Part shown: piece after piece, positions 2,498 to 6,476 of the stretch
Position numbering within the stretch: position 1 is the stretch's first letter
Layout of the letters: every line of letters begins with the position of its first letter
Virus record (IMG/VR): IMGVR_UViG_3300022758_000040
Reading direction: 5' to 3' (one strand)
Length of the DNA stretch: 6,493 bases
From: a virus
Notes under the pieces: generated by a model
The model's database searches: none
Told to the model about the DNA's origin: nothing
The model's input: only the letters and a program-made list of their open reading frames with translations
Made by a program: the position numbers and the translations under genes

Positions 2498-2890
2498 TGA
2501 GTTTGCGTATATAAGACAAGAAAGGTATGAAAGCGATGAGGTAAATCGCTTTCCCTTCGGGCAAACTCATGTAGGCTTCGCCAATGTCCAGAGACTTTAA
2601 AGTATTCTGATTATTTTGCTCGCGGTGCTCGCGCGTTCTTCACTGCGTTCATCACTTAGGCGATCCTTCTTCCTTCGGACTTGGATCGCTTAAGTAAACT
2701 GGCCAACTGGGGTCGCAAGCGACAAGGTGTTTAGGGGAGCAGTTACCTTTAAAAGGAGAGGGAAGAAAGCTGCTATTCCGTTCGTTAAGGAAGGGAAGAT
2801 GAACCCTATGCTTCGCATCACATTTCAGTCATACTTCCCGAAATGTGGAAGGTGTATAACCACGCTACGCGCGGTTGCCAGAAGTTACTC
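2498..2890. other. G+C-rich, hairpin-dense non-coding island: candidate ssDNA replication signal or structured RNA, function unknown
   Basis: There is no - strand ORF. G+C is 28/60 (2641-2700) and 34/60 (2861-2920), against 19/60 in coding 3001-3060. Verified helices: 2498-2506/2561-2569 (9 bp); 2529-2537/2545-2553 (9 bp); 2655-2666/2683-2694 (12 bp, one G-T); 2738-2744/2768-2774 (7 bp, one T-G); 2793-2802/2829-2839 (10 bp, one bulge); 2858-2861/2873-2876 plus 2863-2865/2869-2871. Five 3-nt-loop mini-hairpins are also present. Confidence 0.6.
2617..2656. repeat. Two adjacent tandem direct repeats: tgctcgcg x2 (period 9) and gcgttcNtcact x2 (period 12)
   Basis: tgctcgcg occurs at 2617-2624 and 2626-2633. 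gcgttcttcact (2633-2644) is followed by gcgttcatcact (2645-2656), 11/12 identical. Indexed base by base. Confidence 0.8.
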
Positions 2891-2947: not shown

Positions 2948-4096
2948 CTAACGGCGAGAACTATAATTGTAATTATAGTTAGTGTTAGAATTTTGATTAA
3001 TAGAATGAGAAAAGGTTTTAGACATAATTCTACGAGGCAAGAAATTGCCTATAGTATTACCAATACTAGTACCATATTGAACCCATTTATCAGCATCAAA
3101 ATACCGATATGTTTTCTTTTCATTTCTAGAACGATACCATTGCTCAATATTCTGACTGCGAGCATTGTCTTGAGGAAGATTAAGCCGAAGTTCTTCATTA
3201 TGAAAGGCAGCAGAAGACTCATTAGCAGCAATATTAGCAGCAATTTGAGACTCAGCAATACGATCAGCAATCTCGTTAGAAATATTCTGACCACGCGTAC
3301 GAGCAGCTGCCAAAGCTTCCTCAGCTAGAGCTTTTTTAGCCTCAGCATAAGAAAGATAGCCAGAAGCCATACGTTGGTAGTAATCCGCAGCCTTAACATT
3401 CAAATCAAGCTGTTGTTGTTGGTCAAGATACTTATTCATAATACCTTTAGCCTCATTGTCAAGAAGCATACCAGCATGCTGTGCACGCATAATAACACCT
3501 GTCATCGTCATATTATCGACTTCCTGCTGTTCCTTAGCATAACCAAGCTGAGCACGAGCCAATCCAGTAGACTTCAAATAATCACGAGTCTCATCAGTAA
3601 GTTTGCCCCAATCAATATTAGAAAGGGTTTCCATAGCTTTAGCATCAGAAAGCTGTCTAGCGCCTTGCAATTGAGATTTTTCAGATTGCATAAGCTCATA
3701 TTGGAAAATATTACCAATAGAAGAACCAATACCAGAGTAATCAGCCTGAAAAGGTTGCATCTGGGCATTACCAGAAGAAGTAGCGGTAGCACCAGCACCA
3801 ACAGAACCAGCGGTACCAGAAGAACCACCATTCATCATCAGATAGGGGTTTAAACCAGCCTCTTCGAGACGTTGGCGTTGGGCAGAAGCAGTGTTATAAG
3901 TGTTTTCCTTATTCCACATATCTTCCTGCCAGTTACGCTGCTGTATCGCCATACGCTCGTTGAACTGGTTATTCATCTGATTTATCTTATAATTCATCTT
4001 GTTAGTCTCTTGGACATTCTGCCTATTCTGTCCATTCTGCAAAGAAGAAGCACCAGCGCCAAAGAGACCACCGACAATAGAACCAAAGAGACCCAT
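2948..4096 (-). CDS. VP2: Minor capsid / DNA pilot protein (microvirus VP2, phiX174 H-like), 382 aa
   Basis: Gly-rich hydrophobic N-terminus (MGLFGSIVGGLFGAGAS), long Q/N/A-rich helical segments, and the RLEEAGLNPYLMM motif that I associate with microvirus VP2. The position after VP1 fits. The ATG at 4096-4094 overlaps the upstream stop as TAATG (4098-4094). The C-terminus is low complexity (NSNTNYNYNYSSRR). Confidence 0.85.
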   Translation of the reverse strand: MGLFGSIVGGLFGAGASSLQNGQNRQNVQETNKMNYKINQMNNQFNERMAIQQRNWQEDMWNKENTYNTASAQRQRLEEAGLNPYLMMNGGSSGTAGSVGAGATATSSGNAQMQPFQADYSGIGSSIGNIFQYELMQSEKSQLQGARQLSDAKAMETLSNIDWGKLTDETRDYLKSTGLARAQLGYAKEQQEVDNMTMTGVIMRAQHAGMLLDNEAKGIMNKYLDQQQQLDLNVKAADYYQRMASGYLSYAEAKKALAEEALAAARTRGQNISNEIADRIAESQIAANIAANESSAAFHNEELRLNLPQDNARSQNIEQWYRSRNEKKTYRYFDADKWVQYGTSIGNTIGNFLPRRIMSKTFSHSINQNSNTNYNYNYSSRR

Positions 4097-4572
4097 TACT
4101 CAGAAGAAGCAGAAGAATCAGAAGCAACAGCACCTTCTGATTGTTGTTTAGCATTCTCGGAATCAATTAAAGATTGAGCCTCACGTTCAAGAACCTCAGC
4201 ATGAGCAGCAAGATCTTTCGACCAGGCAATAATCTCAGACGGGGACTGAATATGACGAGAACGAACCGTCGACAAAAGATCATCATCAGACATCTTATCC
4301 ATAATCTGCTGAATCTGAGAAGCAGAATTACGACTCTGGCCAAACTTGGAAGCAATAGCCAAACCAGCACGAGAAGCCAAGTCCTTAGTATGGAGAATCA
4401 AACGGACATCAGAGGTATAACGAACAGGACGAGTTTTATCCGTATCGTCAATTTCAACACGAAGCTCTTCTGTAGAATCGAACTCAGGAGCAACGGCAAA
4501 AGCGTCAGGGGAAACATCAGGAACTAATAGTCCTTGATTTTCAATAGTTTTTAAATTAGAAAATCCAACCAT
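4096..4572 (-). CDS. Hypothetical protein, 158 aa from the ATG (161 aa if the TTG at 4581 is used); positional analogue of an internal scaffolding protein (VP3-like). The function is inferred.
   Basis: Open frame between VP1 and VP2 with T-rich third positions. The track start at 4581 is a TTG (caa on the + strand); the first ATG is at 4572-4570. The acidic, Ser-rich C-terminus (EGAVASDSSASSE) and the tight coupling to VP2 fit a scaffold-like role, but I recognise no motif. Confidence 0.7.
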   Translation of the reverse strand: MVGFSNLKTIENQGLLVPDVSPDAFAVAPEFDSTEELRVEIDDTDKTRPVRYTSDVRLILHTKDLASRAGLAIASKFGQSRNSASQIQQIMDKMSDDDLLSTVRSRHIQSPSEIIAWSKDLAAHAEVLEREAQSLIDSENAKQQSEGAVASDSSASSE

Positions 4573-4583
4573 AACAAACAATA

Positions 4584-6476
4584 TTAATAAGGTAAACCAT
4601 CACGAGACAAGTTACGAGCAACGTAACAACCGATATAAGAGTTAACTAACAACTGGTCTGTATCCCAAGTAGAATCAGCCTTAACGCCAAATATAGGATC
4701 AAGAACAGAGGGATTAACTTTAAAGAACTTGTAGTTCAAGACAACACGAGTATTGGGATTCTCACCACCTTCTTCATATCCATGTCCAAACCAACCAGAG
4801 AGAAGAGACTCGGTAACAGGAGATACCCAAGACTTTTGAGTAGTAGTAAAGGCACCGTTGATAAAATCAAGCTTAGTTTTCCAGTTGAAATAACGAGGGT
4901 TATAACCAGCATTGAACAGGTTAACAATAGAAGCCTTAGGAGAATTGAATATCTGAGTCATAGGAAGAACTTCCATACCAATGTTATCAAACTCAGGAAT
5001 AGGAAGTGATTCAGCATCAGTCACAAGTAATTGGCCATCTTGTCCAGTAATCGTATAATCAAGCAAAGGAACAGCATGATAAATACACATAACAACACAA
5101 TGCTCATTAGTTGTATAGGTAAACGAACCATTACCAGCACCAACACCTTTACCAGCAATCACAGCGGTATCACCAGAACCAGCAAGATTATTGTTAACAA
5201 CCTCACTAATGTCAAGATTACGAGAAATACCACCAATATAGGTACACATATTGGAAAGAGATTGGGGAAGATTAACTCCAAAATGTTTCCGAATTTGTTC
5301 ACGGTAATCCGAATCACCGGACTGGCTAATTTCTTTCCAACGTTGAAGAGCTTCGGCTTGGCGAAGAGCAAGAACAGTGAATTGACTCTGTAACTTAGAA
5401 AGATTAACCTGAAGAGTAGAACCCGAAGGAATAACATTAGATGCAGAAGCACCTTTAGCTGATAAAGATATAGGAGTAAGAGGAGCATTGTAAGAACCAG
5501 TAGTAGCGACTTCAGAAGTAGCACCAGTAGACGGGCTCTTTAAGAATACAGAAGAAGGAATAGTACCATCAGGATTCTCAACACTGATAACAGCAACATC
5601 GCCAAACTGAGAATTCGGAAGAACACCCATCAACATATCCTTATTCCAGTTACAATATCTAAGATCAAACATTGTAGGAGATTTCCAATAATCAGAACCA
5701 GAACCAGGAAGACCATTTGAACCCATTAAATTAGAAGTACAACCAGTATAATAGTCAACATTATAAGAAGAAGGGTTAGCATTTTCCCACTGAGACCAAC
5801 GGAAAAAGTCTTGATAAATCTTCTGATAAGCAAGAATAGGAAAAATATTAACAACATTATTCTGAATATACTGCTGAGAATAAGTCGAACTTTCAGAGTA
5901 CTGCAAGGAAGTAGACCACCAACGAGAACCAGAAGAAGGGTGCCCTTGGCAAAGATTTCCATAACCAAGATAACTCAATAATTTAAACGACAAATCAGGC
6001 CGAGAAAAACCAAATTGATTGGTATAAAAACCAACAGAACCAGGAGTCTCAGAATCCTTATTTAACCGATAGAGAACAGTACTAAGATCGGATAAGGACA
6101 AAGAAGGTAAATAAGTACCCAAAGACAAATTCTGCGTTAAAGAAAGCGCTTGAATCTGATTGATATCCTGCATCTGTGTCAACACAGAAGGAGCAGACTT
6201 CCAAAGAAGACGCAAAGGAACCGAGTAAAAATCAAAGTATTCACGCAAACGAGTATAAGCAGAAGTTTCAACTGGCTGAGTACGGGTAAAATACTCAATA
6301 TTGAATTTGTACTTATCTCCAGGCATAGAGATATCCCAATAGACGGGAAGGAGCTCACCTACTTTCGCAGTAAAAGCGTTTTTTCGTCCAATGTCAAAGC
6401 CAGAACGGTGAGGATGATTCTGGAGATTGGACATTCCAGTGTAAGAAGCCATAAAAAAAAAGTTAAAATTAAACAT
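4584..6476 (-). CDS. VP1: Major capsid protein (microvirus VP1, phiX174 F-like), 630 aa
   Basis: Family-typical blocks: HPHRSGFDIGRKNAFTAKVGELLPVYWDISMPGDKY near the N-terminus; LALRQAEALQRWKEISQSGDSDYREQIRKHFGV...YIGG in the middle; DQLLVNSYIGCYVARNLS at the C-terminus. Alternative starts are ATG 6452 (MASYTG...) and ATG 6434 (MSNLQNHP...). The first 8 codons (MFNFNFFF) come from a T9-containing tract and may be leader rather than coding. Confidence 0.95.
   Translation of the reverse strand: MFNFNFFFMASYTGMSNLQNHPHRSGFDIGRKNAFTAKVGELLPVYWDISMPGDKYKFNIEYFTRTQPVETSAYTRLREYFDFYSVPLRLLWKSAPSVLTQMQDINQIQALSLTQNLSLGTYLPSLSLSDLSTVLYRLNKDSETPGSVGFYTNQFGFSRPDLSFKLLSYLGYGNLCQGHPSSGSRWWSTSLQYSESSTYSQQYIQNNVVNIFPILAYQKIYQDFFRWSQWENANPSSYNVDYYTGCTSNLMGSNGLPGSGSDYWKSPTMFDLRYCNWNKDMLMGVLPNSQFGDVAVISVENPDGTIPSSVFLKSPSTGATSEVATTGSYNAPLTPISLSAKGASASNVIPSGSTLQVNLSKLQSQFTVLALRQAEALQRWKEISQSGDSDYREQIRKHFGVNLPQSLSNMCTYIGGISRNLDISEVVNNNLAGSGDTAVIAGKGVGAGNGSFTYTTNEHCVVMCIYHAVPLLDYTITGQDGQLLVTDAESLPIPEFDNIGMEVLPMTQIFNSPKASIVNLFNAGYNPRYFNWKTKLDFINGAFTTTQKSWVSPVTESLLSGWFGHGYEEGGENPNTRVVLNYKFFKVNPSVLDPIFGVKADSTWDTDQLLVNSYIGCYVARNLSRDGLPY

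Follow-up and report, generated by a model that had tools for sequence, protein, structure and literature searches.

Short DNA hairpins in which a C-G pair closes a GNA or GNNA loop are a known motif, and their link to priming sites of single-stranded DNA (ssDNA) phages and plasmids is likewise known. The mini-hairpins GCGAAAGC of G4 and GCGTTAGC of St-1 and alpha3 lie at primase-dependent complementary-strand origins, and the plasmid site ssiA carries CCGAAGG (PMC13037366). According to this 2026 review, GNA alone forms the mini-hairpin among all 64 GCNNNGC heptamers, with melting temperatures (Tm) of 76 C (N = A), 73 C (G), 71 C (C) and 70 C (T); its two-pair stem has to be GC-GC or CC-GG, CG-CG and GG-CC failing; GTTA and other GNNA loops are tolerated in DNA mini-hairpins; nearest-neighbour models fail for the motif; single-stranded DNA-binding protein (SSB) binds it poorly; and r(GCGAAAGC) melts at 39 C as against 76.5 C for the DNA counterpart (PMC13037366). 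Here we characterize an island of such hairpins at positions 2491-2891 of IMG/VR record IMGVR_UViG_3300022758_000040, whose 6493 nt (the whole stretch analysed, hereafter the window) constitute a complete microvirus genome with every gene on the - strand. Genes and hairpins given below lie on that strand unless noted otherwise. Gut and Bacteroides microviruses are among the most abundant ssDNA phages in animals, and to our knowledge no complementary-strand synthesis origin has been described for them. By analogy with the phage and plasmid sites, we propose with a probability of roughly 0.55 that the island and its homologues, collectively the module, may act as an orientation-dependent, portable complementary-strand origin on packaged ssDNA. 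What is new is the non-homologous, multi-mini-hairpin module itself in Bacteroides microviruses and, as judged from genome comparison, the proof of selection on its loop rules, its behavior as a cassette and the link between its orientation and strand asymmetry.

The origins of G4, St-1, alpha3 and phiK resemble the module in being intergenic; they are read on the viral ssDNA strand, and the module would be read on the strand predicted to be packaged. Those of G4, St-1 and alpha3 also consist of several hairpins, with a d(C-GNNA-G) cap at the priming hairpin. Checked in the sequences themselves, CGGC-GAAA-GCCG lies within the annotated primer site of G4 and GGC-GTTA-GCC in the G-H spacer of alpha3, and the GTTA loop of the St-1/alpha3 mini-hairpin is the commonest hairpin 4 loop among relatives of the module. 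As with the module, the sequence of a G4-type origin is kept among diverged phages of one host, and SSB exclusion is the proposed role of its mini-hairpin, as we propose here. The module differs in having three to five mini-hairpins, mostly with GNA triloops, where G4-type origins have one, in its larger size (340-460 nt), in its exchange among unrelated microvirus lineages in both orientations relative to genes, and in its host, Bacteroides, in which primer synthesis is a proposal only. Sequence homology is also lacking: blastn at word size 7 gave chance-level matches only (E at least 2.5) between the island and the phiX174, G4 and alpha3 genomes.

The primosome assembly site (n'/PriA) in the F-G spacer of phiX174, which is the complementary-strand origin of that phage, is again a microvirus intergenic element with GCGAAGC on the viral strand. 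An earlier note on the window, written from the sequence alone, had placed this heptamer in the phiX174 origin region, and GCGAAGC does occur once in phiX174, at 2358-2364 of the F-G intergenic region. Unlike the module, this site holds a single heptamer in a hairpin region of ~55 nt, and it has no homology to the module. Recognition of the F-G site by PriA is established for E. coli only. The viral strand of phiX174 (L053) carries just two GNA hairpins of at least 3 bp, one of which, CCCC-GAA-GGGG at 4331-4341, is 25 nt from the annotated viral-strand origin (4306), on its 3' side. Plasmid single-strand origins (ssoA/ssoU, and ssiA of RSF1010) share with the module folded ssDNA, one working orientation relative to the displaced strand, and movement as host-specific cassettes among replicons with different Reps; the CCGAAGG mini-hairpin of ssiA is the heptamer of hairpins 1 and 3 of the island. 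They reside on plasmids rather than phages and have conserved motifs of their own (RSB, CS-6), with recognition by RNA polymerase or RepB'. The hexamer TAGCGT in the GTA-loop hairpin 5 (2866-2871, - strand) matches the CS-6 hexamer of ssoA; this likeness is probably chance, because it is lost in the 40 of 101 elements with a non-GTA hairpin 5 loop. Virion RNA polymerase promoters of phage N4 are also DNA hairpins recognised single-stranded, built of a GGA or GAA triloop (as in GCGGAGC) on 5-7 bp of stem, but they require the N4-encoded virion RNA polymerase, and the 6.5-kb genome of the window encodes nothing comparable.

An exhaustive scan of both strands of the window for C-GNA-G triloop hairpins whose stems have 3 or more Watson-Crick pairs recovered the same five mini-hairpins that the earlier note had listed on the - strand, at the positions given there: hairpin 1, CCC-GAA-GGG (2553-2561); hairpin 2, GGC-GAA-GCC (2574-2582); hairpin 3, TCC-GAA-GGA (2671-2679); hairpin 4, ATGC-GAA-GCAT (2808-2818); and hairpin 5, CGC-GTA-GCG (2863-2871). 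Hairpins 2 and 4 contain GCGAAGC (2575-2581 and 2810-2816) and hairpin 5 contains GCGTAGC (2864-2870), again in agreement with that note. The total on the - strand was six, the sixth being the further coding-region instance already pointed out, CTC-GAA-GAG at 3860-3868; the + strand had none. The note's rough estimate that the cluster exceeds chance was borne out by dinucleotide-preserving shuffles of the island, the GC-rich stretch and the whole intergenic region. For the island or the whole intergenic region, 0.09-0.12 GNA hairpins were expected versus 5 observed, a number reached in 0/5000 shuffles, and genome-wide 0.75 were expected versus 6. Triloop hairpins of any loop showed no enrichment (8 observed, 7.4 expected), and the surplus is therefore specific to GNA loops. 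Among 46 related complete genomes, which are kin and do not yield independent counts, GNA hairpin density was 5.8/kb on this strand of the element and 0.17/kb on the other, as compared with 0.15 and 0.08/kb elsewhere in the genome. The loop is GAA or GTA in each of the five window hairpins, in keeping with the rule that only GNA is permitted, and their stems (CC/GG in hairpins 1 and 3, GC/GC in hairpins 2, 4 and 5) follow the published stem rule.

The hairpins were traced through six GenBank records with syntenic intergenic regions, through 46 IMG/VR genomes and 60 metagenome contigs retrieved by an exact-pattern scan with part of a conserved 41-nt core (2851-2891, reading GGAGTAACTTCTGGCAACCGCGC-GTA-GCGTGGTTATACACC and holding mini-hairpin 5), and through extra contigs from a Rep-based search that were chosen independently of the core. 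Loops of hairpins 1, 2 and 5 were tallied over 101 unique elements and those of hairpin 4 over 52 aligned elements. Hairpin 1 has a GAA loop in 62, GTA in 14 and GGA in 10 of 94 cases, and a C-G closing pair in 93/94. Hairpin 2 is capped by GAA in 87/91 and GTA in 2/91, on stems that vary as GGC/GCC (47), GAC/GTC (20), GGT/ACC (9) and GAT/ATC (2); its closing pair is C-G in 78/91. Hairpin 4 loops begin with G and end with A in 51/52 elements, with one or two bases between (GTTA 23, GTCA 8, GCCA 4, GAA 10, GTA 3, GCA 1, GTAA 1, GCAA 1, TTTA 1), and the stem has compensatory changes in 3/4 pairs. GTTA, GTCA and GCCA, none of which is GNRA, account for 35 of the 37 tetraloops. At hairpin 5 (GTA 61, GAA 33, GCA 6, GGA 1) the closing pair is C-G in 101/101, and N alone is informative because the search pattern fixed the G and the A; a compensatory C-G to T-A change is present in mar62 and in three contigs of the L034 clade, described below. 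Closing pairs other than C-G are mostly T-A, with a 5' purine in two aberrant matches only. Hairpin 3 belongs to an insertion (2591-2700) missing from 45/52 aligned elements; elements that have the insertion carry a GAA or GTA loop there, on a long stem that covaries (GATCC/GGATC, GATTC/GAATC, GGTTC/GAACC).

Covariation was assessed in a 49-sequence alignment over the hairpins, three neighbouring helices and a terminator-like hairpin. Compensatory changes were present in 14 of the 48 pairs tested, versus 5.0 in shuffles (0/500 reached 14) and 1-4 in slid controls. Hairpins 1, 2 and 4 each covary. A hairpin at 2819-2847 has a compensatory change from U-A to C-G in 16/49 sequences, with the window displaying its own compensated stem variant; helix P2 of domain A changes from G-C to U-A in 19/49; and the terminator stem covaries among the 49 homologues, alternating between G-C and G-U. 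Across ~100 related elements, then, relatives keep the GNA loop ends while the stems covary, which was the comparison that the earlier note had called for. As read from these alignments, the structure is under selection, and so are the loop rules, in which the G and A ends are kept, N is free and the closing pair is 5'-C...G-3'. The rank of the core as the most conserved stretch of the genome was discounted as evidence, the genomes having been fetched by a core pattern. Because pattern retrieval biases the remaining set, conservation of the core was judged from the Rep-retrieved contigs, which still carry it with 1-5 substitutions, and from unrelated lineages. No host copy of the core was found by the exact-pattern scan in 185,579 species-representative genomes.

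The strand call follows from loop identity, since G...A ends have a known sheared-pair closure and the complementary U...C ends do not, together with the orientation evidence given below. The earlier note had seen a conflict between a function on ssDNA and wobble pairs favoring the + strand. The wobble evidence, however, decides nothing, as each strand, when folded, acquires G.U pairs of its own: where the two RNAalifold structures share helices, the terminator excluded, the wobble cells (G.T versus A.C) number 6 versus 4. Wobble pairs were dropped as a discriminator when an early - strand advantage vanished under this symmetric test, and folding energy, RNA versus DNA and + versus -, was set aside because the values were too similar. 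The alternative raised in that note, that two of the loops might be C(UUCG)G tetraloops of + strand RNA, fails: the double changes TCC/GGA and CCT/AGG of hairpin 1 are compatible with the triloop register only. Only hairpin 1 permits 2 bp in the tetraloop register, and on the + strand a C.C mismatch would close hairpins 2, 4 and 5. Hairpin 4 has G-pyrimidine-pyrimidine-A tetraloops, which DNA rules allow, in place of the GNRA loops preferred by RNA. As RNA, the five hairpins have predicted energies of 0 to -1.3 kcal/mol, and it is hard to see why covariation would maintain hairpins that this model makes so marginal. The folded molecule, we infer, is DNA rather than RNA.

The module behaves as a cassette, with domain B sometimes absent, in three lineages with unrelated Rep and capsid proteins. 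Its core is near-identical in the window clade, in Dulem virus 262 and in the L034 clade. Relative to the window, Dulem virus 262 has a capsid protein with 21% identity and a Rep with ~37% identity over 79 aa, around the HUH motif only. The third lineage, with core and domain B, comprises contigs L034, L109, L125, L138, L142 and L133; its capsid, pilot, Rep and peptidase genes are recognisable, and its proteins have no detectable similarity to those of the window. In all six of these independent contigs the module is inverted relative to the genes. The possibility that L034 is a chimeric assembly was rejected on finding the same inverted arrangement in the five further contigs, which come from other samples. 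One domain-B variant is found in the window, L042 and the L034-clade contigs L034, L109 and L133, and a second in most genomes as well as in L125, L138 and L142 of the L034 clade; the presence of both variants in both lineages indicates repeated exchange. Reps of the core-bearing lineages are 560, 491 and 355 aa long and are related by 37% identity over 79 aa or by no hit, so that recognition of the core by a host factor fits better than recognition by Rep. In Dulem virus 262 (L088), the relevant region spans 3895-4235, with the core at ~4046-4086 in gene orientation and a separate GCGAAGC at 4024-4030, 15 nt upstream of the core; hairpins GCTCC-GCAA-GGAGC and GGAAGGTC-TTCG-GACCTTCC lie between its pilot gene and core.

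Orientation of the module tracks strand composition. At four-fold degenerate sites, the coding strand has 58-66% T in the window clade and Dulem 262-like genomes, 57-63% A in the L034 lineage, and 47-57% T in phiX174, G4 and alpha3. The strand bearing the GNA loops is the T-rich strand in 102/102 distinct genomes, including five contigs of the lineage with genes on the opposite strand. An excess of NNT codons is a signature of the single-stranded genome strand in ssDNA phages and has been ascribed to C-to-T deamination (PMC3278643). The simplest reading of these compositions is that the GNA strand is the packaged one in every lineage. Inversion of the module in the L034 clade, accompanied by an inverted strand asymmetry, is thus a natural experiment on module orientation versus product strand, though not a functional assay. 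GenBank kin of the L034 lineage, namely Sigmofec virus UA08Rod_4510 (L149), Dulem virus 214 and Dulem virus 201 (accessions of the reversed-bias records L149, L150 and L151: OM869569.1, PP511341.1 and PP511547.1), have the same reversed bias, with 58-72% A. Sigmofec virus UA08Rod_4510 has a GC-rich island with five GNA/GNNA hairpins on its T-rich, non-coding strand, for which no homology to the window island was found.

From composition and module orientation, there is about an even chance that the L034-type contigs, Sigmofec virus UA08Rod_4510, Dulem virus 214 and Dulem virus 201 encapsidate the strand that is antisense for capsid, pilot and Rep. These would be negative-sense or ambisense genomes whose polarity was switched by an inverted portable origin cassette, with the module marking, and possibly determining, the packaged strand. 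No report of negative-sense or ambisense microviruses was found in the literature searched, which is not proof of novelty. In L149 (~5239-4870 of the - strand, and 4740-4860), the gap between Rep and the next ORF seems to hold two small T-rich-strand ORFs, with T-ending codons and an AAGGAGG ribosome-binding site ahead of the second; if genuine, they would make the genome ambisense. The GC-rich island that follows them includes CGC-GTA-GCG, GGC-GCA-GCC and CGCC-GAA-GGCG.

We propose a complementary-strand origin because orientation dependence, cassette transfer and host-level conservation are classical properties of single-strand origins. On the T-rich, presumably packaged strand, the module would form successive short hairpins, of which three to five carry d(C-GNA-G) or d(C-GNNA-G) mini-hairpins as caps. 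As the genome enters the cell and SSB coats the strand, the caps would keep the module folded and exposed. A putative priming enzyme of the host, be it primase, RNA polymerase or a PriA-type primosome, would then recognise the 41-nt core with hairpin 5, and complementary-strand synthesis would start at the module, converting ssDNA to the replicative form. Of the earlier note's claim of a function on the single-stranded viral DNA, the choice of molecule is supported by the loop rules, the triloop register, the position between terminator and promoter and the tracking of the T-rich strand; the priming activity that we suggest comes in by analogy only. The element would represent a concrete candidate origin, with defined hairpins, loop rules and a 41-nt core, and would broaden the known case of one mini-hairpin per origin (G4, St-1, alpha3) to an architecture of several, in an unrelated host. 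Its natural variation (N in GNA, GNA versus GNNA, covarying stems) could guide mutagenesis. Tracking of the T-rich strand by orientation may allow the strand packaged by uncultured ssDNA phages to be predicted from sequence only, and a lineage packaging the non-coding strand, if the prediction is true, would overturn the textbook view of positive-sense microvirus genomes.

Several considerations weigh against the proposed origin. The packaged strand is deduced solely from composition. Few independent events underlie the orientation argument, which draws on three lineages, two variants of the module and a single non-homologous island. Both the priming enzyme of the host and the start site are putative. 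Most homologues were retrieved by a pattern inside the core, so the 26 nt of that pattern and the G and A of hairpin 5 are conserved partly by construction. Exceptions to the loop rules exist, with a T-A closing pair in some homologues (in hairpin 2, for example, 11/91) and non-GNA loops at hairpin 1 (ACA, AAA and AAC, once each) and hairpin 5 (ATA, once). Special stability of the caps is taken from published measurements on related oligonucleotides rather than on window sequences; nearest-neighbour DNA parameters predict none, with values for the window hairpins of only -0.2 to -1.2 kcal/mol. Finally, the wobble-pair test leaves the strands indistinguishable, and whole-region folding energies are alike for both strands and both chemistries.

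Other functions were weighed against the same evidence. The module, or its core with hairpin 5, might instead be the viral-strand origin, where Rep nicks and rejoins, or a packaging site, with hairpins that aid cruciform extrusion, Rep recognition or termination and an inversion that reverses the strand made and packaged. By fixing the displaced strand, such a site would account directly for the joint inversion of module and T-skew. It would also suit the position of CCCC-GAA-GGGG (4331-4341) in phiX174, 25 nt 3' of the nick site at 4306, and the status of the core as the most conserved non-coding sequence of the genome; AGTAACTT of the core is faintly like CAACTTG of the phiX174 origin. We nevertheless consider this reading unlikely, since one core serves Reps that are unrelated outside the HUH region, which is not expected of a Rep-specific site, and since covariation of the other hairpins implies constraint on structure rather than sequence. 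A stretch inside Rep (1209-1248) is an alternative candidate for the nick site, and a viral-strand origin would in any case be compatible with a complementary-strand origin in the same module. Distinctly unlikely, in our judgment, is an RNA of the gene-sense strand, whether a structured leader, a read-through/antitermination element or a small noncoding RNA (ncRNA), in which the GNA loops would be RNA triloops. The strand with G...A loop ends is the mRNA sense in the window clade, sheared G.A loop closure is known in RNA too, RNA folding of the element beats shuffles (z = -3.15), and read-through of the terminator would transcribe it. The element nevertheless sits past the terminator and ahead of the next promoter; five of its approximately eight loops are triloops on 3-4 bp stems worth 0 to -1.3 kcal/mol; the tetraloop variants are GYYA rather than GNRA; the RNA form of GCGAAAGC melts at 39 C where the DNA form melts at 76 C; and no Rfam family matches. 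Nor would such an RNA give a reason for the module to follow the T-rich strand when the genes lie opposite.

A role of the folded ssDNA in integration, in the manner of CTX-phi, would have the module present a recombination site to host XerCD-type recombinases beside the attachment site. The phage is temperate, with a relative (L136) found as a prophage in a Bacteroides chromosome, and the attachment site in 2360-2490 adjoins domain A. The attachment (att) repeat, however, lies outside the island and in no predicted hairpin, no second dif-like half-site in inverted orientation was seen, and the L034 clade and Dulem virus 262 share core and domain B without having domain A or the att repeat; we regard an integration role as highly improbable. 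We give next to no weight to an antisense ncRNA, made from the + strand, that would contain C(UUCG)G tetraloops and G.U wobbles. The + strand RNA fold is somewhat more stable (-154.9 versus -137 kcal/mol) with many G.U pairs in the + consensus, and hairpin 1 can be written as CC(UUCG)GG; yet the TCC/GGA and CCT/AGG changes suit the triloop register only, a tetraloop closed by C-G is impossible in four of the five hairpins, and the conserved loop ends would be U and C, which form no known motif. Several long-range pairs specific to the + fold would moreover disrupt the strongly covarying hairpin 2, the window has no Bacteroides-type promoter on its + strand, and Rfam again yields nothing.

On the gene strand, the island occupies the space between a terminator (2890-2928) and a Bacteroides-type promoter (2438-2406). 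The terminator-like hairpin, of the CCCGGCC...GGCCGGG type, spans 2903-2928 directly 3' of the pilot gene and is followed by a T-run (2890-2902); a terminator scan returned this single site on the - strand. Within the core, hairpin 5 extends to 2858-2876 through the stem AACCGCGC/GCGTGGTT, with one G.T pair, beneath its GNA triloop. The hairpin at 2819-2847, CACATTTC/GAAATGTG around a 13-nt loop, corresponds to CTGAATT(T/C)C/G(A/G)AATCAG in relatives, and the adjacent hairpin 4 is AGCC-loop-GGCT in most of them. The rest of domain B (2701-2807), here of the window-type variant, includes the hairpin GTCGC-TT-GCGAC at 2712-2723. The insertion, which is present in few genomes only, forms a 13-bp hairpin (2654-2695) capped by mini-hairpin 3. 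Domain A (2498-2569) is a three-way junction of P1 (2498-2506 with 2561-2569), which is invariant and hence yields no covariation evidence, P2 (2529-2553, with a 7-nt loop) and mini-hairpin 1. The promoter (2406-2438) would serve the downstream small ORFs, peptidase and Rep, and consists of TTTG (2438-2435) and TATCTTTG (2413-2406), 21 nt apart; the Bacteroides promoter consensus, which these boxes match well, was reportedly defined by Bayley et al. in 2000. In ~90 of 106 genomes, the gene strand has a TAnnTTTG box immediately 3' of the element, and no conserved Bacteroides promoter directed into the island was found on either strand. Rfam 15 gave no match at E<=1 on either strand of the whole window, and an ARAGORN scan of the window detected no tRNA or tmRNA.

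In - strand order, the genome encodes a major capsid protein (4584-6476), a scaffold-like protein (4096-4581) and a pilot protein (2948-4096, with its stop at 2948), followed by the 590-nt intergenic region (2360-2947), two small ORFs, an M15 peptidase (1792-2103) and, last, Rep (113-1795). IMG/VR contig IMGVR_UViG_3300022758_000018 is identical to the window. The prophage relative L136 (1-12116) has 89-93% nucleotide identity to the window and is inserted in a Bacteroides chromosome, at ~1700-8200, between a universal-stress-protein gene (usp) and a TPR-gyrA pair. The encoded GyrA shares 98% identity with its Bacteroides muris counterpart; Bacteroides is therefore the host, and the phage is temperate. 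The phage ends of L136 map to ~2361 and ~2491 of the window, placing the attachment site in an AT-rich stretch (2360-2490), and are flanked by the direct repeat CAATATCAGGxxATGTTTAATATAA, which we take to resemble the XerD arm of dif. Sites similar to this repeat are present in B. muris (L152, 12509) and B. fluxus (L157, 9881).

Two ORFs of the window overlap the island, one of 74 aa on the + strand (2727-2951), which has no Pfam match, and one of 43 aa on the - strand (2690-2821). In Dulem virus 257 (L003), a 'hypothetical protein' is annotated over the island at 1463-1666. Since the region covaries in structure and varies by insertion and deletion, the island ORFs are probably not real genes. 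Contig L127 (2731 nt) is a perfect 1268-nt inverted duplication with two cores on opposite strands, and L090 and L105 carry tandem or concatemeric copies; these arrangements are likely artefacts of assembly or of replication intermediates. Inside Rep, a 40-nt stretch (1209-1248) is near-invariant, synonymous sites included, among 36 genomes in which Rep is otherwise ~84% identical, a degree of constraint that may reflect a cis-acting site, possibly the viral-strand nick site by comparison with the phiX174 origin inside gene A.

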